DNA of 59,153 bases, the filler included. It is 9 parts of 9 records of this genome, joined end to end, with 100 filler letters (N's around TTAATTAATTAA, not from the genome) between each part and the next. Parts side by side here need not be neighbours in the genome. Positions count along the whole stretch, not along the records: positions 36,936 to 42,276 come from SRR31156797_7870; 8 more parts are not named here. One strand, given 5' to 3'. The notes under the pieces were generated by a model. The model was given only the letters and a program-made list of their open reading frames with translations. It was not told the DNA's origin and searched no databases. Positions 7,902 to 42,426 of this stretch are shown piece after piece. Made by a program: the position numbers and the translations under genes. The number at the start of each line of letters is the position of its first letter. Position 1 is the stretch's first letter.

Positions 7902-8001
7902 NNNNNNNNNNNNNNNNNNNNNNNNNNNNNNNNNNNNNNNNNNNNTTAATTAATTAANNNNNNNNNNNNNNNNNNNNNNNNNNNNNNNNNNNNNNNNNNN
8001 N
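7902..8001. other. Artificial contig-join spacer (N-run + TTAATTAATTAA + N-run). Also at 15004-15103, 21909-22008, 29793-29892, 36836-36935, 42277-42376, 48870-48969, 53992-54091
   Basis: Identical 100-nt structure eight times; the linker puts stops in all six frames; genes are cut off at the joins. Confidence 0.99.
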
Positions 8002-8999: not shown

Positions 9000-9644
9000 T
9001 TATTCCCGTCTCCGCGCAGCCTCCACTTCCTTCAACCGTGTCATGGTGTACCCTGCGGTAATCGCATGGAATGAGGACAAGGGATTATCATCCCGGACTT
9101 CCGGTGTCAGCCAAACCTTTAGCATCTCATCCAGGTACCGGTGACTGACAGGCTCCACCATGGCGCCTACCACGCACAACAAAAGGCTCCTGTACCCAGC
9201 TGTGAAGGCGCTCCAGTTGATCGAATAGATAACTCGCCCTTTATCATCCTGCTTCTTTTCGACCCGTTGCCCTTCCCCGCCGGCCCGGATAACAAAATTC
9301 TGAAACTCCTTGGACACAATCAGGTTTTCCGTCTCCTGCAAGGCAAAGTACCAGTCCAGGGCCGTGTAAAAGTTGCTCCGGCCGGTCTCCCCATCCATCT
9401 CCTCGAGATTGAACTGACTGGCGTGTCGGGCAATATAATCTGTTTTTTCCTCCACGATGCAGACAAAGCCGTCCGCTTTTTTCTTTTTGATTTCTTCAAT
9501 GAGGGGTGCCTTCCATCGGCCAAACACGCCTTTGATCGGCAAGATGTGAGTCACCGCCAATTGCTCCCCGTTATAGACCGCATAGGCCTTGTATTTCTGT
9601 AGTCCCGCAAGTGAGACTGCAAATATTTTCACTATTTCTGTCAT
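9000..9644 (-). CDS. P1 Mat-like (particle maturation) protein
   Basis: VEEKTD, ALDWYF, DKGR..Y..NW and LLCV..AM.EP.S.R blocks resemble P1 Mat as recalled; ATGA overlap with pacB. Confidence 0.6.
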   Translation of the reverse strand: MTEIVKIFAVSLAGLQKYKAYAVYNGEQLAVTHILPIKGVFGRWKAPLIEEIKKKKADGFVCIVEEKTDYIARHASQFNLEEMDGETGRSNFYTALDWYFALQETENLIVSKEFQNFVIRAGGEGQRVEKKQDDKGRVIYSINWSAFTAGYRSLLLCVVGAMVEPVSHRYLDEMLKVWLTPEVRDDNPLSSFHAITAGYTMTRLKEVEAARRRE

Positions 9645-11122
9645 GCTGCATCCCCTTCAAGTATCTCTTTGGCCCACTTAATCATTTCATCACTGTGGTC
9701 ATCCGCGGCCGTTTCGACCGGTATGTAATCCACAAGGTAAAAGAAACAATGCGTATCCCACACATCCGGGCTCTTTATCCCTTGGCCCCTCATCCGTTCT
9801 TTTGTCCAGATTGCATACCGCCCTCGCTCGTCTAGGTCGTAGGGGATCTTGGCTCCCTCTTCGACAATCTTTTTCACAGGGGCGACCTTCATTCTCTCCT
9901 CGAACACGGCCTCCCGGACCTTCACCGACGCATAGGCACGCTGATTTTTATACCGCCGCTTATCCGCCTCGGAATGGCAGGGTAACCCCCAATGTATGGG
10001 TTCGCATTGCATCCCCAGTTCATCCAGTTCCAGGATAACCGTCCGCCCTGCCCCGTCTCCGTCCACCGCAATGGTGACAGAAGGCAGTTCCAGGCATCTC
10101 TGATAGAGCTTCCTGGCAAATTCTTTTTCATTCAGATTCAGGAACTCCCGGCATTCGGTAACCTCAACCTTACGCTTCTCGTAATATCCGGACACCTTGC
10201 CAATGGTCCAGACGGACGAATCCCGGTGTACGCCTTCGGCCACGTCCACGGTGACAACCCATCCCCATGATTCTTCATGGATGATTTCAAGCCCCTGGGA
10301 CAATTCCAACCATCGTTTGGGAATCAGGTACCCGGTCAAATTATCCGGTAGGCAGCCCAAGACCTTGATCTGGTATTCAGGGCTATGGTGGCCACCGTAC
10401 TCGATCAGTTTTTCCCGGATAAACTTCTTGGAAACAATGGGGGAAAGCTCGGCATTGAGGTTGAACGTCGTGTAAAGATCGCTCAGTTTCCCGAAAGCGT
10501 CAGCAAAGTGCCCCACTGGCCTTGTGGGCTGGGAGACCATGACATACCGGTTATCCTCATGGGTGAGAGCGCCCCTCAATACGCCATGGATCTCATCCTC
10601 AACGCCTGAAGCCTCATCAACAATGCAGATATAGTTGTTATTATGCTGGCCGGCCACATTCTCAGGGGCGCTCTTGCTGGCTGTCTTGGGGATTACATAC
10701 CAGGAGTCTTTATACAACCGCATGTAATACCGCTTGGTTTCCTTGACAAACCACCCGGCCATCCAGGGGTGTCGCCGGTCCACATTGATAATGACCTCAT
10801 CCATGTATTTCCAGACCACGGAACGCACCTGCTCGATGTTGGTCGCGGTCAACAGTGCATTGGAATACGGGTATACCCTCAGGTGCCAATCAAGCACATA
10901 GGCCAGTAACCAACTTTTTCCGGTGCCATGGCCGCTGGCCGCTGCCACCCGGCACCCGGGTTCCTGAATAGCTTTGACCAGGTCAATTTGTTGCCAGGTA
11001 AGCCGGTGCGGGGCATGGTCCAGCATGTACCCAACCAGATCCCCCCGGTACCTGGCACAAAAATCAAGATACCGGGGGTCCCGGGTAAGGGAACGCTTCT
11101 TACTGCTCTTCCTTCGGGCCAT
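9641..11122 (-). CDS. pacB: Terminase large subunit, P1 PacB-like
   Basis: TWQQ, Walker A SGHGTGKS, Walker B IVDEASGV, SQPTRP, nuclease VDVA...RDSSV and SPDVWDT. Likely ATG at 11122 after a G-rich RBS. Confidence 0.9.
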   Translation of the reverse strand: MARRKSSKKRSLTRDPRYLDFCARYRGDLVGYMLDHAPHRLTWQQIDLVKAIQEPGCRVAAASGHGTGKSWLLAYVLDWHLRVYPYSNALLTATNIEQVRSVVWKYMDEVIINVDRRHPWMAGWFVKETKRYYMRLYKDSWYVIPKTASKSAPENVAGQHNNNYICIVDEASGVEDEIHGVLRGALTHEDNRYVMVSQPTRPVGHFADAFGKLSDLYTTFNLNAELSPIVSKKFIREKLIEYGGHHSPEYQIKVLGCLPDNLTGYLIPKRWLELSQGLEIIHEESWGWVVTVDVAEGVHRDSSVWTIGKVSGYYEKRKVEVTECREFLNLNEKEFARKLYQRCLELPSVTIAVDGDGAGRTVILELDELGMQCEPIHWGLPCHSEADKRRYKNQRAYASVKVREAVFEERMKVAPVKKIVEEGAKIPYDLDERGRYAIWTKERMRGQGIKSPDVWDTHCFFYLVDYIPVETAADDHSDEMIKWAKEILEGDAA

Positions 11123-12137
11123 CCCCACCCTCCCCGAAGGAGTCGACATGGGACAGGTCCTCTTTGATCTGGACCACGGCCTTTTTCCGTTCGGCCACAA
11201 ACTCTACCCGCTCAGTCTCAATCTCCATCAACATCTTCTGGCGCCGGGCCAGGATCTCTTCCTCGGTGATCTCGTCACCGTCATCAGGCGGGGCCTCTTC
11301 CGGCTGGTGCTTCTGTAACAGCATTTTCAAGGGTTCCGGCATCTGTACACCCAAGCGAACACAACCAATAGCAGCCTCTTCAATGTCCATGGTGCCATCG
11401 GCCAGGCCGTCAAAAATGGACCTCATGTCCGCCATTTTTTCAAGGCCTTTGATGTTCGGCATGATCCGCTCAAACGCCCTTTGCATATCGATCACAAAAT
11501 TGGCCATTTCCCTTGAAGCGGATGGGGATTTAGCATCCTTCCAGTAAGATTTTGCATCCGCTGCATCCTTCAGCACATCAAAAAGCTTCCATTGCGTAAG
11601 AAGGACCTCTGCATACATATTTCTGGCCTCGTCGACGGCACGCTCCTCTACGAACGCTTGGATGGCTTTCCCGGAACTCTCTTTTATGGCAGCTTCTTTC
11701 TCCTTCCTCCAGCCAACTGTATTTCTGCGGAAAGTGGTATTCTCTGAATCTATCCCATGGAACCTTGCAAATGCCGATACGGTCTTGAATTTCCCTCTTA
11801 TGAATTCCTCTTTGAGGGTCGGCCAGTCGAGGGCGGCGACAGAGGTTACTTCCCGATTTTTTGAGGTTACCTTCTGTTTTTTTGGGGTTACCTCCTGCTT
11901 TTTTGGGGTAACTTTTTTGTTTTTCGCAGCTCCGGTCTTTTTTTTTGTCTTTTTTGAGGGTTTCTTTTTTCCCTTCAAGACGCCTAAAATTTTTTTCAAA
12001 TACGGCAAAGACATTGTTACGCCGAGTTCTTCACTCCTCCGCTCACAGAATTTTGCCTGGGTTACTTTTTCACCGGATTCTTTTAGTTTAAGAAAAAGTA
12101 ACCCCTCGGCCTGATAGTCTATTTTCTTTTCACTCAT
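11100..12137 (-). CDS. pacA: Terminase small subunit, P1 PacA-like
   Basis: Directly upstream of and overlapping pacB. DW..LKEEF HTH-like segment and a C-terminal IEEAA....LGVQMP...RR....FVAERK region resembling PacA. Confidence 0.7.
   Translation of the reverse strand: MSEKKIDYQAEGLLFLKLKESGEKVTQAKFCERRSEELGVTMSLPYLKKILGVLKGKKKPSKKTKKKTGAAKNKKVTPKKQEVTPKKQKVTSKNREVTSVAALDWPTLKEEFIRGKFKTVSAFARFHGIDSENTTFRRNTVGWRKEKEAAIKESSGKAIQAFVEERAVDEARNMYAEVLLTQWKLFDVLKDAADAKSYWKDAKSPSASREMANFVIDMQRAFERIMPNIKGLEKMADMRSIFDGLADGTMDIEEAAIGCVRLGVQMPEPLKMLLQKHQPEEAPPDDGDEITEEEILARRQKMLMEIETERVEFVAERKKAVVQIKEDLSHVDSFGEGGDGPKEEQ
11844..11912. repeat. Four-copy 21-bp tandem repeat (GGTWAC core) inside pacA; candidate pac site
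   Basis: GGTTAC at 11844, 11865 and 11886, GGTAAC at 11907: exact 21-bp period, separated by T-tracts. Confidence 0.85.
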
Positions 12138-12489
12138 ACTGAGCTGCTCTCTTTCTCTCCTCGTATTCAACCATGGTTCGGCAAACTGCTTCTCGGGTGT
12201 CGAACCGTGTTTGACATCTCTTGCAATCACGAACTCTCACTACGACCCCGGGGTCGGTCGGAATGGTTTGAGTAACGGTTGACTTTGTGTTGCAGACAGG
12301 ACAACGATCCGCTTTGGTCTGGCGAATCGGCCCGGCAACGGTTTGCTCGATGATGCTTGCAAAAACTTCTCTCGTCTCGAACCCGGCATTGCAGGCATTG
12401 CATTTCCGCCACCTGCAAATTGCTAACGTATTATCTTTCCTGTCGACCCCCGGGCTCCTCATGCGCCCACCGCAATTCAAACACTCCAA
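12130..12489 (-). CDS. Tandem double zinc-ribbon protein (NrdR-N/Ogr-Delta-like); putative late-gene regulator
   Basis: Two CxxC...R.R.CxxC...F.T.E units; overlaps the pacA start. Confidence 0.7.
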   Translation of the reverse strand: MECLNCGGRMRSPGVDRKDNTLAICRWRKCNACNAGFETREVFASIIEQTVAGPIRQTKADRCPVCNTKSTVTQTIPTDPGVVVRVRDCKRCQTRFDTREAVCRTMVEYEERKRAAQYE

Positions 12490-12501
12490 ACTCGATACTC
12501 C

Positions 12502-12732
12502 TCACGGAATTGAAGAATTACGCTCTTCAATTCTAAAATTTTCAGGTAGAGATGCCAATTGGGGCCAGGGAGAACCAAACTCGTCCGGCCAAAGACACTT
12601 ACACCTGGATACTCCCAACAACCTCTCAACTTTTTTGGCCATGCCCGGTGTCCAGCATTTACGCCCATGTTTCAGATCACAAAGATGTTGGGCCGTAATG
12701 CCAAGCAATTTGGCAATGGTAACTTGCTTCAA
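12502..12732 (-). CDS. Cro/XRE-like HTH protein
   Basis: KQVTIAKLLGITAQHLCDLKHGRK. TTG start overlaps the upstream stop (TTGA) with a GGGAG RBS. Confidence 0.7.
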   Translation of the reverse strand: MKQVTIAKLLGITAQHLCDLKHGRKCWTPGMAKKVERLLGVSRCKCLWPDEFGSPWPQLASLPENFRIEERNSSIP

Positions 12733-13529
12733 ACCGCCACTCCCATATCCTGAACGCCCTGTGTGTAACACTCGACGCCGATTCTCATGCATGCGGCCTT
12801 CATAGAGTCCAGGGTTTTGACATCCCCAACGAATGGGGCAATGAGCTCCGCCAAGGCCTCCCACTTCTCATCGGCCACGGCCTGGGCCTTTTCGGGGATA
12901 CAGGCAGCATCGCTAACGATTCTCTCTCGTCTCCGCTCCCGTGTTTTTACCCGGGCCCGAGCATTCTTAGCCTGGCGTTTGCACTCATTGCAGTGGTATT
13001 TCTTGGTACTCCAAGCGCCTTCACTCATCCCTTCCCGCTTGTAGAAAATCTTCCCGCACGCCTCGTATGCGCACCGCTTCCAGGTGACCCCTTCCAAGGC
13101 TGAATCTGGTTTATCACCTGAATCGCTTTTTGCATTATTTAACGAAGTTTCAGCGCTCGACGCATACAGTTGCACTCGAACACCCGTGAAGGCCGATTTT
13201 TCAGTGCAACAATCTCGCCCTGCGGCCAATCCATCTGTTTTTGTTTCCACGTTTTTTACATTTCCCTCCAAATCCACTGTTTGCATGCCAAGCTTACAGC
13301 CCTTCTTTCTCAAAATTCGTTCGATGTCTTTTTTGCGTGCATGTTGCGGCATTGCCCGGTGCAAAGAACAATACTTCATCCTGGCCCAACTCTTCGAACT
13401 GGCGCCCTCAGGCCGTGTAAACGATTCACCACACGGGCAAATCTTGACCTCGCCCCTCTTGGGTGAGGCAATCTCTTCCTCCAGGACGGCTTTCAAAACG
13501 TCGATGTTGCTCTGTGTTTCTGTGCTCAT
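12729..13529 (-). CDS. Phage protein with two repeated Cys-rich zinc-finger-like motifs
   Basis: CPCGESF.R.EG.S...W...KYC and C....CGKIF.KREG.S...W...KYHC..C; ATGA overlap with the upstream gene. Confidence 0.7.
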   Translation of the reverse strand: MSTETQSNIDVLKAVLEEEIASPKRGEVKICPCGESFTRPEGASSKSWARMKYCSLHRAMPQHARKKDIERILRKKGCKLGMQTVDLEGNVKNVETKTDGLAAGRDCCTEKSAFTGVRVQLYASSAETSLNNAKSDSGDKPDSALEGVTWKRCAYEACGKIFYKREGMSEGAWSTKKYHCNECKRQAKNARARVKTRERRRERIVSDAACIPEKAQAVADEKWEALAELIAPFVGDVKTLDSMKAACMRIGVECYTQGVQDMGVAV

Positions 13530-13708
13530 GCTTCACCTCTCGGGGTGCCTTGCCCAGGCCGGACACTCCACAACGGGCAGTCCTCAACGTCGCATTGAGA
13601 TATCTCGGATTGCGATCCCTGGCAGCAATCCAAGCAGTTGGCATTGATTGCAGACCTCAGGGCCTCGGGGTTCTCTTCTGGTTTTCGAATAGTGCTACAC
13701 TGTGTCAT
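13526..13708 (-). CDS. Small Cys-rich phage protein
   Basis: AINANCLDCC.G...EI..C....CPLW..R pattern; ATGA overlaps on both sides. Confidence 0.7.
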   Translation of the reverse strand: MTQCSTIRKPEENPEALRSAINANCLDCCQGSQSEISQCDVEDCPLWSVRPGQGTPRGEA

Positions 13709-14181
13709 CTCTTTCTCCTGCTGTTGTAAAAATATCTCTCGGCCTGATACGCAATCAGCATGGCCTCAGCCCGGTCGTGATCTTTCTCTCTCAAAAAATA
13801 CTCACTCTCCGGGAACATCCGCCTGGCCACGGCCAATGATTTCTTTTTCGTCGTGCTGCCGTCGGACTTCTTGAACAGCCCTTTTCTCCAAGCTCGAGGG
13901 GCGACAAACTTGAACGGGATCTCCAGGGAAGCCAAGACGCCCTGCCAAAATCCGAAGTTTGTGCCGAACTTGAACGCCGATGCCCTGCCATCCTCCGGCA
14001 TGCTATGGACCAGCTCCAGGAATGCCCCCTGGATGTGATACTCGCGGTTCCACTCCCGGATCAGGGCCGAAGTTTTTAAGATGCCGGCATAGTCTGCGAT
14101 CATGATCTGGGATCCCGATTTCAGGCAGGCTGCCCCGGATCCCCCGGGATCTATACCGAGCCACCACTCTTGCGTTACCAT
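13705..14181 (-). CDS. Phage RuvC-like Holliday junction resolvase
   Basis: LGIDPG.SGA, FLELV, SAFKFG.NFG, P..WRK and KDHDRAEAMLIA catalytic blocks. Confidence 0.88.
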   Translation of the reverse strand: MVTQEWWLGIDPGGSGAACLKSGSQIMIADYAGILKTSALIREWNREYHIQGAFLELVHSMPEDGRASAFKFGTNFGFWQGVLASLEIPFKFVAPRAWRKGLFKKSDGSTTKKKSLAVARRMFPESEYFLREKDHDRAEAMLIAYQAERYFYNSRRKR

Positions 14182-24315: not shown

Positions 24316-24336
24316 CACAACATGGAGGACCCTTCC

Positions 24337-25149
24337 ATGCAGAACCGGATCAAACCGATCGAGGCCTATTTTATCGAAGATGAACCCTATTATCTGCCTT
24401 CGGGCAACGAGGTAAACATCTTCACGGAATCCTACCGGAACCGTCTGCCGGTATTGCTGAAAGGGCCCACGGGATGCGGCAAAACCCGGTTTATGGAATA
24501 TATGGCATGGCGTTTAAAAAGGCCCCTTCTCACCGTGGCCTGCCATGACGATTTAACCAGCGGGGATCTGGTGGGCAGGTATCTCATTCAAGGGAACGAA
24601 ACGGTCTGGACGGACGGGCCTCTGGCCCGGGCCGTCCGGGCGGGCGGGTTCTGTTATCTGGATGAAATCGTCGAGGCCAGGAAGGACACCACCGTGGTCA
24701 TCCATCCCCTGGCGGACGACCGTCGCATCCTGCCCATGGAAAAAAAGGGGGAAGTGTTGACCGCGGCGCCCGAATTCATGCTCGTCCTCTCCTTCAACCC
24801 CGGCTATCAGAGCATCATGAAGGATCTCAAACCGAGTACAAGACAGCGTTTTGTTTCCCTTGAATTTGACTATCCTGACGAAGCGGGCGAAACCGCTATT
24901 GTGGCACAAGAATCGGGCGTGGATAAAGAAACCGCCAAGCGTCTGGTTCGTCTGGGCCGCATGACCCGAAACCTCAAGGAAAAGGGGCTGGATGAAGGGG
25001 GGAGCACCCGATTGCTCATTAACGCCGGCAAACTGATGCAATCCGGCATCTCCCCGCAAGACGCTTGTCTAGCGTCCGTCACCCACACCCTCAGCGACGA
25101 CCGGGAGATGCAGCAATCCATGAACGAAATGATCACCTCCCTCTTTTGA
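24337..25149 (+). CDS. MoxR AAA+ ATPase, CbbQ/NirQ/NorQ subfamily
   Basis: EPYY, LLKGPTGCGKTRF, ACHDDL...DLVGR, YLDEIVEARKDT, NPGYQS..KDLKPSTRQRF, STRLL. Confidence 0.95.
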   Translation: MQNRIKPIEAYFIEDEPYYLPSGNEVNIFTESYRNRLPVLLKGPTGCGKTRFMEYMAWRLKRPLLTVACHDDLTSGDLVGRYLIQGNETVWTDGPLARAVRAGGFCYLDEIVEARKDTTVVIHPLADDRRILPMEKKGEVLTAAPEFMLVLSFNPGYQSIMKDLKPSTRQRFVSLEFDYPDEAGETAIVAQESGVDKETAKRLVRLGRMTRNLKEKGLDEGGSTRLLINAGKLMQSGISPQDACLASVTHTLSDDREMQQSMNEMITSLF

Positions 25150-25162
25150 ACTGAAACACAAA

Positions 25163-27508
25163 ATGGCTTTTCTGACCGAACGGAAGGATACGAGCAACGA
25201 CATCCTCTCTGTTTTTGAGCTTCCCCTTGAAACCGGCTCCAGGATCTACTACGAGGAAGATCTGGTGGAGATGGGGTTTTTGAATCTTCTGGACGATTTT
25301 ACCACGGAGATCCGTAAAACCGTCCTGATTCATGCCCGAACCCTTGCGGGCATAAAACCGGAGTTGGCGTTTTATTTCCTTATCAAATGCAGAGAGCTCC
25401 TTGAACAAATCAACCCGGACGACCTGGAAAAATGGGTGTCCCTGGCCCTGGACATATCCGATCTTCAGGGGCTTAACCCCGCAAAAGAGTTCATTCTGAC
25501 CTTAAACAACCATCCTCTTTTTATTCGACACTGGGGAATGGGGGTTTCCTTTTTTGAGGTTCACGGTATCCTGCAAAATTATATTCATGCACTGGGAAAT
25601 CGGGACTTTCATCTGGAACCGGGCCAAACACATTATACCGACACACAAACCATTTATCTCCCTGAGCGGATCTCAACGTTTTCTCGAAAGGACGATAACG
25701 CGCTCCTTTACAAAATCATGGTCACCCACAAGTTCCTGCAGACGGCACTGGGGACCTATCGGTTGGATCTCGGGAAAATTTCCCTGCCTCAAAACACGCT
25801 CCTTCCCATAGACGAAAATTCCCTTGAAGAAAAAAGCCCCCCGCTTTCCCGTTTCCGGGACCGGTTTTCCGAACCCCTTCTGGCGGAAGAGCTCTTTAAT
25901 TTTTTTGAGACCTTAAGGATTGAGGCGTGGATAAAAGAAAATCTTCCGGGACTCTGTCGGGAAATGAACCGGCTGAAAAACCGACTGGGTCTGAAGCGGG
26001 ATGTGAACCCTGAGCTTCCCCCCAAAAGCCTGATCATGGACAATCTGATCAGCCGTTGGCTCACAGGGGATATTCACACCCTGAAGGAACCCTCTTGGGC
26101 CAAGGCGGCCGAGGATATTGCTCAATTTCCGGAAGCCATCAGAAAACCCCACTCTACCGTTGAAGATACTGCCGCAGCCGTACTCCGGGCATGTGCCCGG
26201 CTCGATGGAATCCCCGGATCCTACGAACCGGTAATGCCGGTCCCCTTCATGGGAACGCTGAAACCCGAAGACGCAGAGAGAGGGCGTCAGAAAAGACGCG
26301 AAGCCACGCGCATCAGGTTTCGTGAGGAATTGGCAAAAATGATACGGGATTTACCCCAATGGGAGCAGGTGGAAATTGAGATCCCCGGAACCGGTGAAGT
26401 GCATAAGGCTGAAAACAAGCCCTTGCCCCAACAGCAGGTTCCCGATGCCCTTCTCATGGACGGAAAGCCGGTTCCCATTCCCGAAGCCATGCGGAAAATC
26501 ATCGAAGAGATATATGAAGACCTGGGGGCCATTCCCGGCACTTACGTGGCAACGGCGGATGACATGAGCGGTCATTCTTTTCGTTCCCTCTGCCAGACGC
26601 CCACTGGAACCAGCAATATCCTTTCCGAGCACGGCGCGGGGGTCCATGTCTATGACGAATGGGATTACCGAAGGAAAGGGTATCGAAAACGATGGGCTCT
26701 TTTGAGGGAATCGGATGCCCCCATGGGCGATTCCGCTTTTTCCGACGAAGTTCTTGACCGGCATGGGGGAATGATTCAGGCCATCAAGCGGCGGTTTGAG
26801 CGGATCCAACTGGCCCGGGTCCTTTTGAAGAGGCAGAAAGACGGCGACCGCATTGATCTGGATGCCGCCATTGAGGGCTTTGCGGACCAGCGTGCGGGGC
26901 TGATACCCTCCGAGCGCGTCTTTGCCCACATGCGTCGGGACAAACGGGACATCGCCACCGCTTTTCTCATTGATTTGAGCGGTTCCACCAAGGGCTGGAT
27001 CAACGACATGGAACGGACGGCGTTACTCATCCTCAGTGAGGCGCTTCAGGTATTGAAAGACCGGTTTGCCATTTACGGTTTTTCCGGCAGGACCCGGAAA
27101 AGATGCGAACTTTTTCGCATCAAGGGATTTGAGGAAACTTACGGAGAAACCATAAAGAATCGAATTTCAGGGCTTGTCCCGCTGGATTATACCCGCATGG
27201 GACCGCCCATCCGCCATCTCACCGGCATCCTTAAACAGGTGGAGGCGCAAACGCGGCTCATGATCACCTTAAGCGACGGCAAGCCCGATGATTACGATAT
27301 CTATAAGGGCCGGTACGGCATCGAGGATACCAGGGCTGCCCTGCTGGAAGCCAAGCAAGCCGGCATCCACCCCTTCTGCATCACCATTGACAAGGCGGAG
27401 CACCATTACCTGTCCCACATGTACGGACCCGCCAATTATGTGTTCATTGATGATATCGCGAAACTACCGGTCAAAATTCCCGAAATTTATAGAAAATTAA
27501 CCACATAG
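25163..27508 (+). CDS. CbbO/NorD-type vWA adaptor protein
   Basis: YTD...IYLP, E..RIE, YDEWDY, DGDRIDLDAAI, MIDAS DLSGS, YTRMG, LSDGKPDD, PFCITID. Confidence 0.92.
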   Translation: MAFLTERKDTSNDILSVFELPLETGSRIYYEEDLVEMGFLNLLDDFTTEIRKTVLIHARTLAGIKPELAFYFLIKCRELLEQINPDDLEKWVSLALDISDLQGLNPAKEFILTLNNHPLFIRHWGMGVSFFEVHGILQNYIHALGNRDFHLEPGQTHYTDTQTIYLPERISTFSRKDDNALLYKIMVTHKFLQTALGTYRLDLGKISLPQNTLLPIDENSLEEKSPPLSRFRDRFSEPLLAEELFNFFETLRIEAWIKENLPGLCREMNRLKNRLGLKRDVNPELPPKSLIMDNLISRWLTGDIHTLKEPSWAKAAEDIAQFPEAIRKPHSTVEDTAAAVLRACARLDGIPGSYEPVMPVPFMGTLKPEDAERGRQKRREATRIRFREELAKMIRDLPQWEQVEIEIPGTGEVHKAENKPLPQQQVPDALLMDGKPVPIPEAMRKIIEEIYEDLGAIPGTYVATADDMSGHSFRSLCQTPTGTSNILSEHGAGVHVYDEWDYRRKGYRKRWALLRESDAPMGDSAFSDEVLDRHGGMIQAIKRRFERIQLARVLLKRQKDGDRIDLDAAIEGFADQRAGLIPSERVFAHMRRDKRDIATAFLIDLSGSTKGWINDMERTALLILSEALQVLKDRFAIYGFSGRTRKRCELFRIKGFEETYGETIKNRISGLVPLDYTRMGPPIRHLTGILKQVEAQTRLMITLSDGKPDDYDIYKGRYGIEDTRAALLEAKQAGIHPFCITIDKAEHHYLSHMYGPANYVFIDDIAKLPVKIPEIYRKLTT

Positions 27509-36835: not shown

Positions 36836-36935
36836 NNNNNNNNNNNNNNNNNNNNNNNNNNNNNNNNNNNNNNNNNNNNTTAATTAATTAANNNNNNNNN
36901 NNNNNNNNNNNNNNNNNNNNNNNNNNNNNNNNNNN

Positions 36936-37345
36936 CGCGCCGGAGAACTTGAATCCCATGCCGGTCGAAGGGTGGATTCTTTATGGGGGCAGAAACTGGT
37001 TTTTCTGGCTCTAATAACGCCCAAAATAACCATCCCGGCAGGCTTCACCTTTCACCGGCCAGACCCGGCTTTAACTAAATGGTTCAAAGAGAATAAACAA
37101 TTAAAAAGAAAGAAAATACTGGCAAAAGAAAAACCTGAAAAGCCGGAACGATCATCGGAGTACCCCACCATACCAGCACTCGCTCTCAAACTGTTGAGAG
37201 AATTCAAAGAGTATCATCCTGAAATTCATATTCAGGCAATAGTTGCTGAGGCCCTGTATAGGAACGCTGATTTTATGGACAAGGCATCAAACATGTTCAA
37301 CGAGGGTCAGGTCATCAGCCAAATTCGGTCAAACCAGAAGGTCTC
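36936..37345 (+). pseudogene. DDE transposase fragment (IS4/IS701-like)
   Basis: GGFFMG then frameshift to QKLVFL..TPKITIP.GF, AEALY (degenerate ADALY), QVISQIRSNQ, then homology stops. Confidence 0.65.
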
Positions 37346-37658
37346 ACCTGAAATTACTTTTATGTGGAAATCCAGTTTTTTCAGGTTTTTTGAACGACTG
37401 TTTCACATTCTACTTGACAAAAGCAGAAACAAATAGTTCGATTCAGGCTGGGGATCGGGAGGCGGTGTCATCACATGCCTTATGCTGAAAGTCTTTTTGA
37501 CTATCAGGCTTTCCCAAGAAGGGTTGGTTTTCAAGTCCATTTTTGCCGTCTCTTCTATCTGCACCCCAAACGGTTAAAATCAGAAAGAATTATGCAAACT
37601 GGAAATAAAGAGCAAATGAAATAAAATCCATTGACATAAAAATCCGGACGATTGTCAC

Positions 37659-38414
37659 ATGCAAACTGCAAAGATCAAAGAGCAAAAGGCAAATATTTTA
37701 AAACTGCTTGGAATGGCAGGCGCCAATGGCCTCAACAAAAGCGGCCTGAAAATTAAGTCCTCAAAAATAAAACAGCAGGCGCTCAGGGAACTTGAAAACG
37801 AAAGAAAAATTGCGAATCTCGAGGTCAGAGGGAGATACCTGTATGTGCTCAAGGAGTTTGACACTCCCCTGGAGATGGCCTGCGACAGGGTGGAAGATAT
37901 TTTGAGTTCCCAGGGGAGCAGACTCCTGAGCAAGAGACAGCTGATCACCCAGTGCAGCAAAGGCTCCCCGGGAAAAGTCAAAAACGAGCTGAACCGTGCC
38001 ATCGACTGGCTTATCAAAGACAATCGACTGATGAAACTTCAGCACGGCAGTTCCGTTTTCCACCTTCATGTAGCATCCGTTTCCCGGCTTTTTCCCGATG
38101 CGGATCAGGAATTCAAATCACTCTCCAAAACGCCGAGAACGAATATCGAAAGAAAAAAGGTCCTCCGTGCATACAGGAAAATCGCATCCCAGACAGGCTA
38201 TTCAAATATCGAAATCTACCGGTTGAAACAGGAACTCGGCGTGGGGATGGACCTCCTTGAATCCTTTCTGCTGAATGAGAGCAAACGGGGAACAGCCGTC
38301 CTCAGCTTTGGGGACTGGTCTCTCTCATCGGAAGATACCCGGTCCGGTTCCATAGAAATCGACGGGACCCCCCACCTGCTTGTAAGGTTCAAATCAGAGG
38401 AGGATACCCTGTGA
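37659..38414 (+). CDS. Basic protein with probable tandem winged-HTH modules
   Basis: Three helix-helix-helix-hairpin-like units (ALRELENERKI...YLYV; AIDWLIKDNRL...FHLH; IEIYRLKQELG...IDG..HLLVRF). Fold is inferred. Confidence 0.7.
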   Translation: MQTAKIKEQKANILKLLGMAGANGLNKSGLKIKSSKIKQQALRELENERKIANLEVRGRYLYVLKEFDTPLEMACDRVEDILSSQGSRLLSKRQLITQCSKGSPGKVKNELNRAIDWLIKDNRLMKLQHGSSVFHLHVASVSRLFPDADQEFKSLSKTPRTNIERKKVLRAYRKIASQTGYSNIEIYRLKQELGVGMDLLESFLLNESKRGTAVLSFGDWSLSSEDTRSGSIEIDGTPHLLVRFKSEEDTL

Positions 38415-40399
38415 ACGACACCCCCATGATCAATCCCTTTGAAAATGTTATCGTTCGTGAACCGCGGCAGGTTGAGAAACAGGCGGTTGCAAGCCTGAAC
38501 AGAAGATTCCTGGACCGGCTGCTCTCACAATTCAAACGGCTTCAAGCCGGAGCGTTCCCGAGAAAAGTCAGGCTGCCTCACGCCCAGTTCGTTGTCTCCC
38601 CCCAGCCGGGTTACGGGAAATCACATCTTATAGGACGCCTGTTTCAGATCATTTCGGGGCAGGCGACCCTTGTTTATGTCACGCCCTTCGAAAATGCCGC
38701 CACATGCTGGAAATCCATTCTCCTAAAAACGGTTCAGGAACTGAAATTCCCGGATGATATGAACCATGAGTGCAGCAGTGACGACAAACCTTCCCAGCTT
38801 GAAGTTTTTGCCCATGGCGTGACGGTAGCGTTGATCACTGAAACCTTCAAAAACCAAAAAAATATCACTTTTTTCCAGGAGTCGACGATTAAAAACCTGA
38901 GAAAAAAAAGGAATTTTCTCGAAAAAAAGAACAAGTTTATTTCCAAACTGGCCCCCCAGATAGAACGCAAAGGGATCAGACTGTACGCATCCTCCCAGAG
39001 CTGGCTCAACGTACTGTTCACCTGTGCTTACGACAACGACCCCGAACGCCGTGATGCCTGTGAGGCGTGGCTTTTAGGCAGCAGCATGGATTCGGAGATT
39101 GCTTCGGGAATCGGCATCCGGCAACGGGACATTCCCGGTTTTGATATGGGAGAGGCCGAAACGGGCGAAAGCTGCAAGCACAGGATCCTAGATCTCTGCA
39201 AGTTAGCCGGTTTTTTCAGGCCCTTTGTCTTCTCCTTCGACCAGACAGAAAACTACGGTAAGGACGAAAGCCTCGCCAAGGCCCTGGGATCGGTTATTCA
39301 GGTCCTGATGGATGAAAGCTGCAATCAGATGACCATTATAGCGGTGAATCAGATCCCTTGGGATAAGAGCATCACCCCCCACTGGGAAGAAGCCTATAAA
39401 GACCGCCTGGGCCCGCCCATAGAACTTGAAGGCCTTGCCAGGGACCAGGGACTGGAGTTGATCGAACACAGGAGCAATTCTTCCAGCCGGGAAAATTATG
39501 AAACACTGACCAGAAATCAGGACTGGCTGGAAGAGATATTCAAGGTACATAAACAAGTGGGGGTACGCGATTTCCTCGGGAAATGCCACAGGCAATGGGA
39601 AATAATGATGGGTCGGCCAAGCGCCCCCCAGGATATGGACGCATATTACTCAAGGAGTATCGAAGACCTGGAAACCCACCCTAAAGACATGCTCTTTAAT
39701 CCGAACATTTTCTACTGGCTTATCCACGAAGTAGGGGCGGTGAATCCGGATTGGCACATTGAAAAGATCGAAAACAGGGGCTCATATTTTTCCCTTTTAT
39801 GGAAAATCGAGGACCGCGAGATCCGATTCGGCCAGGAAAGCGGTTCCCACTGGAAAAGGTGGCAGGCCATACAAAGGAAATCGGAAAACTTCCAAAGAGC
39901 CAACAAGCATTCCAAAACCGTCTTCTTCAGAACCCCGGACCTTCAGGGAATTCCGGGAACCGGCTGGAAAACAGCCCCGGAACTTAGAGCCGCCAAACAA
40001 CGTCATCTTCACATCATCACCCTCAACAGCCGGCAGACCGCAAAGCTTTACGGCGCCTATTCCCTTTATCTCAAAGCGACGGAAGGGAATATCCCCCTGA
40101 GCACCGGGGATGTAGTATCTTTCACCCATGACAAACTCAACTGGTTCTGGGAAATGGTGACCGATCCCATGCCCCGTCATCAGACCGGCATGGAAGTGGA
40201 AAAAGAGAAGGTCACACCAGAGCAGGTAAAAGAGATTCAGTGCATTGTTGAGACCCACAGGTTCATGGGCATCGATGATCTTATCTCAAGGCTTTCAACG
40301 CCGGTATCCAGGGATATTTTCCATGAAGGCCAATGCCTGATACCTCATATCAAAATTTTCGAAGGACTGAAGAACAAGGTGGTACAATGGCAATCCTGA
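38411..40399 (+). CDS. Large P-loop (AAA+/STAND-like) ATPase
   Basis: INPF N-terminus, Walker A SPQPGYGKSHL, Walker B FVFSFDQTE, probable Arg finger AYKDRL; GTGA overlap with the upstream gene. Confidence 0.85.
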   Translation: MNDTPMINPFENVIVREPRQVEKQAVASLNRRFLDRLLSQFKRLQAGAFPRKVRLPHAQFVVSPQPGYGKSHLIGRLFQIISGQATLVYVTPFENAATCWKSILLKTVQELKFPDDMNHECSSDDKPSQLEVFAHGVTVALITETFKNQKNITFFQESTIKNLRKKRNFLEKKNKFISKLAPQIERKGIRLYASSQSWLNVLFTCAYDNDPERRDACEAWLLGSSMDSEIASGIGIRQRDIPGFDMGEAETGESCKHRILDLCKLAGFFRPFVFSFDQTENYGKDESLAKALGSVIQVLMDESCNQMTIIAVNQIPWDKSITPHWEEAYKDRLGPPIELEGLARDQGLELIEHRSNSSSRENYETLTRNQDWLEEIFKVHKQVGVRDFLGKCHRQWEIMMGRPSAPQDMDAYYSRSIEDLETHPKDMLFNPNIFYWLIHEVGAVNPDWHIEKIENRGSYFSLLWKIEDREIRFGQESGSHWKRWQAIQRKSENFQRANKHSKTVFFRTPDLQGIPGTGWKTAPELRAAKQRHLHIITLNSRQTAKLYGAYSLYLKATEGNIPLSTGDVVSFTHDKLNWFWEMVTDPMPRHQTGMEVEKEKVTPEQVKEIQCIVETHRFMGIDDLISRLSTPVSRDIFHEGQCLIPHIKIFEGLKNKVVQWQS

Positions 40400-42201
40400 A
40401 TATCAATGTCAGCCAGCTGAAATGCGCCTGCCTGAATGAATCCTGGCGAAACAGTTTTAAAAACGGTGAAAATCCTTCGACTTTCTGCCCGCCCCCTCCA
40501 GGCAGCATGCCCGTCTACGGCACAAAATTTCATAAACTCGTGGAACGGTTCACCCGCCGGCTTTCATCGGACCGGCAGGCAAAAACAGGGTTCGGCACAC
40601 ATGACGAAATTAAACTATGGCAAGAGCTGTATGACCTCTTTGCCGAAAAAACCCTCTCGAAGCTCCTGAAAACCAGAGAGATCGATTCGGCACACCATCT
40701 TTGCGAGTGCCTAAAATCATTCTGCCGCCACCTGATGGACCTGAAAAAAAAAGCCCCCGGTATGAAATCATGGCAGGATCTCTATCTGACCCAGGAATTT
40801 CTGATCAAGGACCTCCCGTTTAAGGTCGGCCCCCACACCCTGTTTATTTCCGGCCAGGCGGATGCCGTGAGAAGCCATCCGGAACATGGCATCGAAGTGG
40901 TGGATTACAAGCTTTCACAGGGCTCCAACCTTGAACAGGATCTGGTGCAGCTCGCCATCTATGCAAAACTGCTTGAAATTGAAAAACCGGGACTCTCCTT
41001 TCACGGAGCGATCGAGTACTTTGAGCCGGAGCTTCGCGCAGTTCCCGTTTCAAACGAAGATCTCAAGTCCATTTTTGCTGAACTTGTCGAGCCAGTACTG
41101 CCTGAGCTTTTCACGGCCGAGCAACAGGGGAAAACCGCACCGTCCAAAGAGAACAGCCCCGATCTGTCTGAAGAAATCAGGCAGTGCTACCGCTCCTTCA
41201 AACTGGATGTTACGGTAATCGAGCGCATGGAAGCACCCCAGCTTGTAAGATACAGCTTAAAACCCGCCAACGGGGTCAAGGTGGTCTCCCTGGCCAACAG
41301 GGCGGAAGATCTTCAAGTATTCCTCTCTCTACCCATGGCGCCTTTGATCGAACCTGCCCGGGGGGCGGTCTCCATCGACATCCCCAAGGATAGACCGGAT
41401 ACGGTTTACTGGGAACAGCTAAGGCATGATACCTCCTGGGGCAAGGATGGCAACAGCGTTGCATTTCCAGTGGGTATCTCCGTCACGGGCCAATCGATCT
41501 TCGCCGATTTTTCAGATCCCAACATGTGCCATGGGCTGATTGCCGGTGCTTCCGGAAGCGGCAAAAGCGAATTTCTGAAGGCGATGGTGGCTTCCCTGGT
41601 TTCGAGAAACACCCCGGACACCCTGCGCCTGTCCATCATCGACCCCAAGCATCTCACCTTTGGGGCCCTCAACGGCAGCCCCTATCTGACAAGCCCCGTC
41701 ATCAAGGAGATGGCCCCGGCCATCTCATGCCTGCAGTCGGCCGCCCGTGAAATGGACACACGGTATCGAATCCTAGAGAAGGAGGGTTTTGAAAACCTGA
41801 AGGGCCGTTTCCAGGCGGGACATGAAGATATCCCTTACCGCTTCATTGTCTTTGATGAGTTTGCTGATCTGATTCTCAGCGGAAAGGAGGAGAAAAAAGA
41901 GTTTGAAAACCTGGTGGCAAGAATTGCCGCCAAGGGGCGCGCGGCCGGAATCCATCTGGTGCTGGCCACCCAGAGACCGGACAGGAATATTGTCACGGGA
42001 CAAATCAAGGCCAACCTGCCCCTGAAAATCTGCCTCAGGGTCACCACCGCCGCCAATTCCCAGATCGTCCTGGACGAGGCCGGAGGGGAGTCCCTGCTGG
42101 GACGGGGAGATCTTCTCTGCAACCTGGGCCGGGGAACGGTACGAGCCCAGTCCCCGTATGTTTCCCAGAAAAAACTGCGGACGCTGGCACAACTCCCTTA
42201 A
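40387..42201 (+). CDS. PD-(D/E)XK (RecB/Cas4-like) nuclease fused to an FtsK/SpoIIIE alpha-beta motor; no TM or gamma domain
   Basis: Nuclease: YGTKFH, ISGQAD, VVDYKL, QLAIYA. FtsK: APQLVRY..KP..GVKV, HGLIAGASGSGKS, IIDPK, VFDEFAD, GRAAGIHLVLATQRP, ESLLGRGDLL. Confidence 0.92.
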   Translation: MAILNINVSQLKCACLNESWRNSFKNGENPSTFCPPPPGSMPVYGTKFHKLVERFTRRLSSDRQAKTGFGTHDEIKLWQELYDLFAEKTLSKLLKTREIDSAHHLCECLKSFCRHLMDLKKKAPGMKSWQDLYLTQEFLIKDLPFKVGPHTLFISGQADAVRSHPEHGIEVVDYKLSQGSNLEQDLVQLAIYAKLLEIEKPGLSFHGAIEYFEPELRAVPVSNEDLKSIFAELVEPVLPELFTAEQQGKTAPSKENSPDLSEEIRQCYRSFKLDVTVIERMEAPQLVRYSLKPANGVKVVSLANRAEDLQVFLSLPMAPLIEPARGAVSIDIPKDRPDTVYWEQLRHDTSWGKDGNSVAFPVGISVTGQSIFADFSDPNMCHGLIAGASGSGKSEFLKAMVASLVSRNTPDTLRLSIIDPKHLTFGALNGSPYLTSPVIKEMAPAISCLQSAAREMDTRYRILEKEGFENLKGRFQAGHEDIPYRFIVFDEFADLILSGKEEKKEFENLVARIAAKGRAAGIHLVLATQRPDRNIVTGQIKANLPLKICLRVTTAANSQIVLDEAGGESLLGRGDLLCNLGRGTVRAQSPYVSQKKLRTLAQLP

Positions 42202-42376
42202 AATTAATCCATAGCCAGGTTCTGTTTAAAATTAGTAAAAATTACTCTTCCATGGCGCCCATCTCGATGGAGATCTNNNNNNNNNNNNNNNNNNNNNNNN
42301 NNNNNNNNNNNNNNNNNNNNTTAATTAATTAANNNNNNNNNNNNNNNNNNNNNNNNNNNNNNNNNNNNNNNNNNNN

Positions 42377-42426
42377 AAACTCTAAACTCTAAACTCTAAA
42401 TTCTAATCTCTAAACTCTAAACTCTA
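42377..42426. repeat. Heptanucleotide tandem repeat (AAACTCT), about 7 copies
   Basis: aaactct aaactct aaactct aaattct aatctct aaactct aaactct, abutting the hydA stop at the contig end. Confidence 0.9.

Follow-up and report, generated by a model that had tools for sequence, protein, structure and literature searches.

A three-gene cassette that combines an Orc/Cdc6-type ATPase with a nuclease-FtsK fusion, a probable member of a predicted class of anti-mobile-element systems

Organization of the cassette

The window analyzed here (59,153 nucleotides [nt], filler included) is made of nine separate contigs. One of these, SRR31156797_7870 (5,341 bases, positions 36936-42276), has as its sole occupants the end of a transposase gene and a cassette of three co-oriented open reading frames (ORFs), which is the subject of this work. 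The cassette lies on the plus strand between 37659 and 42201, and its genes are coupled by overlaps. Genes 1 and 2 share the bases GTGA (38411-38414), with a GAGGA found 6 nt before the GTG start of gene 2, and genes 2 and 3 share 13 nt (40387-40399). All of the 7 aligned homologues of gene 3 begin at the ATG at 40387, the ATG at 40333 being an in-frame upstream alternative. An earlier reading of the letters alone (the sequence-only reading) had described the same co-oriented genes and both overlaps, in agreement with our direct inspection and with the homologue starts. The genes and their domains are as follows.

37659..38414, plus strand: gene 1, 251 amino acids (aa), three tandem winged-helix domains in the AlphaFold2 (AF2) model
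38411..40399, plus strand: gene 2, 662 aa, GTG start, AAA+ ATPase of the Orc/Cdc6 clade plus two more domains
38582..39610, plus strand: AAA+ core and lid of gene 2, residues 58-400, with K70, D277-Q278, N313, R332, and R386
39701..40081, plus strand: middle alpha/beta domain of gene 2, residues 431-557, from the secondary structure of the model
40217..40390, plus strand: C-terminal winged helix of gene 2, residues 603-660, from the model and structural matches
40387..42201, plus strand: gene 3, 604 aa, nuclease-FtsK fusion, start backed by homologues
40507..41115, plus strand: PD-(D/E)XK nuclease of gene 3, RecB/Cas4 type (PDDEXK_1, 6.6e-9), with intact D, DxK, and QxxxY
41107..41385, plus strand: FtsK alpha domain of gene 3 (FtsK_alpha, 3.4e-10)
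41431..42198, plus strand: FtsK beta (RecA-like motor) domain of gene 3 (FtsK_SpoIIIE, 9.1e-39), reaching the C terminus

The nuclease-FtsK fusion

Gene 3 had been read as an intact RecB/Cas4-type nuclease joined to a complete FtsK motor, and both the Pfam domains and the conservation of the motifs bear this out. Among eight gene 3 sequences from five phyla, the nuclease motifs D159, D173-Y-K175, and Q188..Y192 are invariant in 8/8, and so are the Walker A GSGKS (393-394), the Walker B D490-E491, and the ATQRP stretch of the motor (residues counted from the start at 40387). The alignment also contains three invariant cysteines, two of them within the motor. The nuclease scores 25.2 bits against the Cas4 equivalog TIGR00372, well below its cutoff of 65. 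FtsK-nuclease fusions were reportedly mentioned by Iyer et al. in 2004.

The nearest solved structure to the motor is that of FtsK (2iuu_A, 8.6e-81), aligned over the alpha and beta domains; weaker matches are to plasmid TraB (3.2e-13) and to coupling proteins. However, gene 3 differs from the cellular FtsK in lacking the N-terminal membrane domain, the linker, and the gamma (KOPS-reading) domain, with the nuclease taking the N-terminal place. No Ftsk_gamma match was found in Pfam at an E value of ≤0.1, and reading the sequence revealed no hydrophobic stretch that could act as a membrane anchor; therefore, the product would be a soluble pump without a KOPS reader. Its score against the cellular FtsK model NF007615 is 182.5 bits, for a cutoff of 1566, and the genomes that carry the cassette also encode a separate, ordinary FtsK that is 29 to 35% identical.

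The Orc/Cdc6-type ATPase

By sequence, gene 2 had no match in Pfam (DUF6079 and BrxC included), PADLOC, NCBIfam, or PHROGs. A profile search of the PDB turned up a chance match only (E = 0.35), and Foldseek returned generic AAA+ proteins (Cdc48, HslU) with poor TM-scores. An AF2 model built from a 26-sequence alignment (pLDDT 85.9, pTM 0.82) has Orc/Cdc6 proteins as its closest structures, with matches to 2qby_B, 7jpo_A, and 4xgc_E that extend to residue 662. The sequence-only reading had taken this gene for a P-loop ATPase, with BrxC/D and SspC among the defense ATPases it cited; the structural matches make this assignment more specific, namely Orc/Cdc6. The Walker A (G67-x-G69-K70-S71), the Walker B D277, R332, and R386 are invariant in 26/26 sequences, as expected from the Walker A/B motifs and probable Arg finger noted before. 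N313 is a candidate sensor-1, R332 a candidate Arg finger, and R386 a candidate sensor-2.

Residues 277 to 280 are D-Q-T-E in all 26 sequences, that is, a glutamine follows the Walker B aspartate in place of the usual glutamate. This invariant glutamine suggests slow hydrolysis and a switch-like behavior. The pair recalls the E-to-Q mutation engineered in AAA+ proteins as an ATP trap.

In the model, the middle domain (residues 431 to 557) shows the element order a-b-b-b-a-b-a-b-a, as in restriction-endonuclease (REase) folds, and no aspartate or lysine is invariant in this region of the 26-sequence alignment, which makes it a candidate inactive REase. An hhalign comparison with the gene 3 nuclease aligned only P-loops (probability 1%), and a search of the ESM Atlas with residues 425 to 565 found nothing usable beyond an unnamed cluster at 0.87. 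Predicted binding between residues 405 to 662 of gene 2 and 1 to 250 of gene 3 scored 0.72, with one control at 0.61, and counts neither way.

The winged-helix protein

Gene 1 has no Pfam match and no PADLOC 2.0 family at an E value of ≤0.1. The repeated winged helix-turn-helix (wHTH)-like units previously noticed in it correspond, in the AF2 model, to three winged-helix domains at approximately residues 2 to 66, 69 to 140, and 162 to 247. When the same distant loci are compared, identity is 20 to 35% for gene 1, 31 to 40% for gene 2, and 44 to 55% for gene 3; judged by these sequences, gene 1 is the fastest-evolving component, followed by gene 2 and then gene 3.

Relatives and gene order

A word-indexed search with gene 2 found 333 proteins at an E value of ≤0.001, nearly all annotated as hypothetical and one as an ATP-binding protein, and when 1.84 billion representatives were searched exhaustively with a profile, the yield was 1,322 matches (E ≤ 1e-3) and 213 clusters (E ≤ 1e-30). 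A survey of 185,579 species, each represented by a single genome, confirmed 152 loci, of which 80 were fetched. These loci belong to Desulfobacterota, Nitrospirota, Nitrospinota, Verrucomicrobiota, and Acidobacteriota, among others, and also to Alpha-, Gamma-, and Zetaproteobacteria and to Myxococcales. Two genomes carry two copies. Gene order was compared by coordinates in 50 of the 152 loci (49 genomes), and ORF listings of 16 loci directly bear it out.

Conservation of the three-gene order was one of the checks proposed with the sequence-only reading. In 47/50 loci, the gene immediately before gene 2 is a homologue of gene 1. The nuclease-FtsK gene follows directly downstream in 31/50, intact in 28, split in 2 (L035 and L070), and in one open frame with gene 2 in 1 (L069). 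Two of the exceptions for gene 1 are solitary copies of gene 2 (L036:7989-10028 and L059:7776-10136) in genomes that have the full cassette on another contig; L043, grouped with them, is unconfirmed.

A partial or alternative third component was found in six more loci. It is a nuclease fused to HerA in L049 and a nuclease only in L029, L032, and L007; in L065, gene 2 itself is fused to FtsK-alpha/FtsK without the nuclease; and in L017 the place is taken by a 1,172-aa SMC/LmuB-like protein. In this last locus (L017:9809-13327, from a Desulfatibacillum metagenome-assembled genome), the SMC-like protein (PADLOC LmuB, 5.9e-17) comes after the gene 1-gene 2 pair, gene 2 is apparently split in two frames, and the first ~80 residues of the SMC-like protein resemble the N terminus of gene 3. 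The loci without a gene 3 relative are mostly from Verrucomicrobia, and the gene 2 match stops there near residue 588. In L057 and L072, two Verrucomicrobiae loci, the third ORF (254 and 282 aa) had neither a Pfam or PADLOC match nor similarity to the gene 3 profile.

Among 20 long gene 2 relatives (889 to 1,534 aa), 16 end in an FtsK or HerA motor: 7 contain PDDEXK_1 plus FtsK, 7 FtsK without a detectable nuclease, and 2 HerA, with nothing recognizable in the other 4. The PD-(D/E)XK domain sits between the gene 2 part and the motor in 7 of these 16 motor fusions. No other evidence speaks as strongly for joint action of genes 2 and 3 as these natural fusions.

Comparison with known systems

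The layout of the cassette is already in print as a comparative-genomics prediction from 2024, and the present case is probably one further member. PMC10853773 (NAR 2024;52:1005) predicts, from mobile neighborhoods, "HerA/FtsK capture" systems, a view restated in PMC12839542. In the excerpts of the first paper on which we rely, an Orc/CDC6 AAA+ ATPase always carries, ahead of its C-terminal wHTH, an inserted REase that is inactive, and the class also has an active REase and a HerA/FtsK motor. One set of motors has an FtsK-alpha taken from the cellular FtsK and another is without it, a subset has a separate fast-evolving protein of 2 to 4 wHTH, and the domains are variously fused and split. According to its authors' proposal, the Orc/Cdc6 protein would localize the restriction apparatus on DNA, and the pump would intercept the element as it is segregated or transferred.

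The likeness to this class is one of architecture, as described in the text of those excerpts. Gene 2 corresponds to the Orc/CDC6 family ATPase, and gene 3 provides both the active REase-fold nuclease (PDDEXK_1, 6.6e-9) and the motor with FtsK-alpha, the HerA variant being represented by L049. Gene 1 corresponds to the separate, fast-evolving multi-wHTH protein, and the 152 patchy loci, with flanks that differ in 16/16 cases, agree with the mobile neighborhoods of the excerpts. The nuclease is assigned here to PDDEXK_1/Cas4-RecB; the excerpts name two active-REase families, one of them shared with AbiJ. The nuclease-only form, the SMC/LmuB-like third gene, the solitary gene 2, and the invariant glutamine are variants that do not appear in the excerpts. 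The sequence-only reading had proposed a new, unnamed system, and PADLOC 2.0 indeed lacks models of genes 1 and 2, but the excerpts show that the layout is not new.

The cassette resembles DndFGH/SspFGH in having three genes and an FtsK-alpha plus FtsK motor, in the position of the REase before the motor (also ahead of it in DndH, according to the excerpts of PMC10853773), and in the triple-wHTH gene 1, similar to DndG by fold class. The best PADLOC match of gene 3 is the SspH C terminus (1.2e-58), at profile positions 1395 to 1763 of 1766. However, its 604 aa cover only the last fifth of this profile and do not amount to the multidomain DndH/SspH core of ~1,500 to 1,700 aa (inactive SWI2/SNF2 domain, target recognition domains, inactive methylase, REase, and HerA/FtsK). 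Genes 1 and 2 match no PADLOC family at an E value of ≤0.1, SspF/G and DndF/G included, and the kinship of gene 1 to DndG, SspB, or FokI found no PADLOC or Pfam match. Gene 2 is an Orc/Cdc6 AAA+ protein, whereas DndF is kinase-like, and the contig has no dnd or ssp modification genes.

Compared with BREX and the BREX-related capture systems in the excerpts of PMC12839542, the cassette has no PglZ, BrxB-like STAND, methylase, GNAT, or TGT gene. With Lamassu and Menshen, it shares the logic of an ATPase plus a nuclease effector, L017 pairs genes 1 and 2 with the LmuB-like protein, and L003 adjoins a full Menshen system, but genes 1 to 3 match the models of these systems only by the generic P-loop. 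Nor was the Tn7-like TnsABC machinery found (a TnsC-type AAA+ protein, a TnsB-type transposase, and TnsA).

Genomic context

Flanking genes were scanned against Pfam in 16 loci (77 proteins from 10 loci, cassette genes included, and 36 from 6 more), using hand-picked ORFs, the largest nonoverlapping ones of at least 150 to 200 aa, with small genes and shadow frames omitted. The flanks were different in 16/16 loci, and the 113 submitted ORFs included no integrase, relaxase, type IV secretion system (T4SS), or cassette-conserved DDE transposase. Examples of the genes found are those for acetate kinase, BamA, PBP1, leuB/argJ, ABC transporters, methyl-accepting chemotaxis proteins, and flagella.

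The first 10 loci were also scanned with PADLOC. In L003, from Desulfocicer vacuolatum DSM 3385, a complete Menshen NsnABC (NsnA 7.7e-128, NsnB 9.7e-110, NsnC 8.4e-111) at 10220-13307 comes directly after a gene 2 homologue truncated at its C terminus (599 aa), occupying the usual place of the nuclease-FtsK gene; it looks like the effector region of one system has been replaced by another defense system. A gene for a PtuB-like HNH protein is located 3.4 kb upstream in L018, and Fic/DOC and ARPP-1 genes are found near the cassette in L021 and L019, respectively. In L013, IS66 and IS200 transposases adjoin the cassette, with a ParA-like gene upstream. One plasmid match to gene 2, in Methylosinus pOB3b1, is a 226-aa fragment between copies of IS6 and was set aside as uninformative.

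A predicted capture system and its alternatives

On balance, the contig probably encodes a member of the computationally predicted class of Orc/CDC6 plus HerA/FtsK capture systems against mobile elements. This reading draws on the accessory behavior of the genes, the swapping of the effector, the gradient of evolutionary rates along the three genes, the fusions, and the match to the literature. The machine of sensor, ATPase, and translocating nuclease imagined in the sequence-only reading fits everything found; its role in defense we infer.

A number of observations weigh against defense. Known defense genes lie beside the cassette in only 2/10 PADLOC-scanned loci, and the flanks are mostly metabolic or housekeeping genes in the 16 loci. 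Matches to gene 2 were absent from 50,697 phage records, and those in 72,556 plasmids were only three, weak and partial; both collections under-represent the phyla that carry it. The conservation of gene 3 across phyla is more like that of a housekeeping gene than that of an effector in an arms race, and the cassette has no methylase or other self-marking gene. In 13/50 loci, no gene 3 relative was found beside gene 2 at an E value of ≤1e-10. The REase identity of the middle domain in the gene 2 model follows from topology only and is not established. Finally, the defense assignment in the excerpts of PMC10853773 is itself an inference from gene context; we found no experimental study of the class, and, among the papers searched, the phrase "FtsK capture" appeared only in that paper and PMC12839542.

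Several of these points would suit a chromosomal module for DNA repair or recombination, with end resection similar to that of HerA-NurA or AddAB and with genes 2 and 1 as loader and regulator. The housekeeping flanks, the near absence from phage and plasmid records, the strong conservation of gene 3, and the missing modification partner all agree with it, and its RecB-type nuclease motifs are of a sort usual in enzymes that process DNA ends. On the other hand, the family is very rare, with 152 loci scattered over the 185,579 species genomes, and it occupies a different genomic position in 16/16 loci. There are genomes with two copies, and split, truncated, and insertion sequence (IS)-flanked copies occur; the third component varies, being an FtsK, HerA, SMC-like, or nuclease-only form; and gene 1 diverges fast. 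Rarity, variable position, extra or decayed copies, a swapped third component, and a fast-diverging gene are traits of accessory conflict genes, and we regard repair as unlikely.

The genes could also be part of a transposon-like element, or derived from one, with a TnsC/MuB-like regulator, a TnsA-like nuclease, and a DNA-binding target selector that would promote the movement or upkeep of the element itself and not the defense of the host. A transposase gene ends 220 nt upstream on the same contig, L013 has the two transposases mentioned above, and the Orc/CDC6 family takes in the ATPase subunits of Tn7 and Mu according to the excerpts of PMC10853773. However, these transposases are from different IS families and occur in 2/17 contexts, the 113 flanking ORFs gave no Pfam match to the mobility genes listed above, and cut-and-paste transposition, as known, makes no use of an FtsK pump; this origin appears quite improbable. 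A function in DNA transfer or partition, by an FtsK/TraB-like pump that carries double-stranded DNA (dsDNA) from cell to cell or to daughter cells as in actinomycete conjugative elements, recalls the FtsK and weaker TraB and coupling-protein matches of the motor and the ParA-like gene of L013, but it is very improbable for a protein without membrane anchor or gamma domain whose active nuclease would destroy the cargo, with no relaxase or T4SS genes in the scanned flanks and almost no plasmid matches.

Proposed mechanism and implications

If the cassette is a capture system, the triple winged helix of gene 1 and the Orc/Cdc6-type AAA+ protein of gene 2 would form a conserved recognition core, to which gene 2 would bring a further winged helix and an REase-like domain that is dead catalytically. 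This core would bind some feature of incoming or replicating foreign DNA and, in its ATP-bound state, recruit or license gene 3. The soluble FtsK alpha-beta ring would then pump dsDNA past the fused RecB/Cas4-type nuclease, which would cut it.

A bolder proposal, which we hold to be doubtful, is that genes 1 and 2 are a portable ORC-like core that recognizes DNA and loads whichever motor-nuclease comes next, be it an FtsK or HerA ring or an SMC-like ATPase. They would constitute an ATP-latched Orc/Cdc6 switch (through the Asp-Gln pair) with a winged-helix adaptor sensing a foreign replication or transfer intermediate, and cleavage would be gated by the pairing of the dead REase (gene 2) with the live nuclease (gene 3). 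Were this true, bacterial immunity would have its own counterpart of the loading of MCM by ORC/Cdc6.

Restriction of phages or plasmids by the cassette would give a first experimental footing to the whole predicted HerA/FtsK capture class, and would mean that an origin-recognition-type ATPase and a chromosome-segregation pump have been reused for immunity. Its compact three-gene form makes the cassette convenient to start from, with cultured homologues in Rhodovulum sp. PH10 and Bradyrhizobium; the copy in the cultured Desulfocicer vacuolatum is decayed. For annotation, the value lies in names for two protein families that are now hypothetical.

The contig and the rest of the window

The cassette contig is delimited by the following features.

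36836..36935, no strand: assembly spacer at the upstream contig boundary (44 N, TTAATTAATTAA, 44 N)
36936..37436, plus strand: 3' portion of a transposase gene whose frame is open at base 1 of the contig, 166 codons plus stop
42277..42376, no strand: assembly spacer at the downstream contig boundary, 75 nt past the end of gene 3

The ORF at 36936-37436 is the only true neighbor of the cassette. It matched no Pfam family, and its residues 18 to 136 are 42 to 44% identical to genes annotated as transposase on two plasmids. The sequence-only reading had called it a transposase remnant; the likeness to transposases is confirmed, but the gene is cut by the contig end and not necessarily decayed. 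The assembly graph branches at both ends of the contig, in one case at 36965. A scan of the contig for promoters and terminators stayed at chance level (4 versus 3.5 and 12 versus 8.2, respectively). Short contigs (151 to 277 nt, 0 to 7 differences, 96 to 100% identity) from two marine-sediment metatranscriptome runs match each of the three genes and the spacer that precedes gene 1, which is a weak hint that the cassette is transcribed in situ; both runs are from one study, depth was low (2 to 3.4), and DNA can occur in such libraries. Stretches of the cassette without a matching contig carry no weight.

The nine contigs of the window are chained by spacers of 44 N on each side of TTAATTAATTAA, a six-frame stop spacer present in 8 copies versus 0.02 expected (at 7946, 15048, 21953, 29837, 36880, 42321, 48914, and 54036). 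Base composition shifts abruptly at these sites, with GC contents of 0.33 to 0.65 among the pieces, and genes are interrupted at the joins, rpsB and gyrA among them, as well as those for a phosphorylase and a class II tRNA synthetase. The adjacency of genes across the joins is thus meaningless, and dnaE/rpsB (upstream) and hydABC (downstream) were rejected as neighbors of the cassette because they are located on other contigs. The pieces possibly originate from more than one organism.

Three other regions of the window were noted. On another contig, 9000-14181 (minus strand) contains five successive ORFs (214, 519, 376, 266, and 158 aa) with no Pfam family at an E value of ≤0.001 and a strongly negative GC skew. 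The start of the contig that follows the cassette (42377-42425) consists of imperfect repeats of the heptamer AAACTCT, just downstream of a convergent hydrogenase gene. On a further separate contig, 24322-27508 encodes a CbbQ/NirQ/NorQ-type AAA_5 ATPase followed by a 781-aa VWA-domain protein, with a DUF362 protein upstream, an ordinary MoxR/VWA-like pair.

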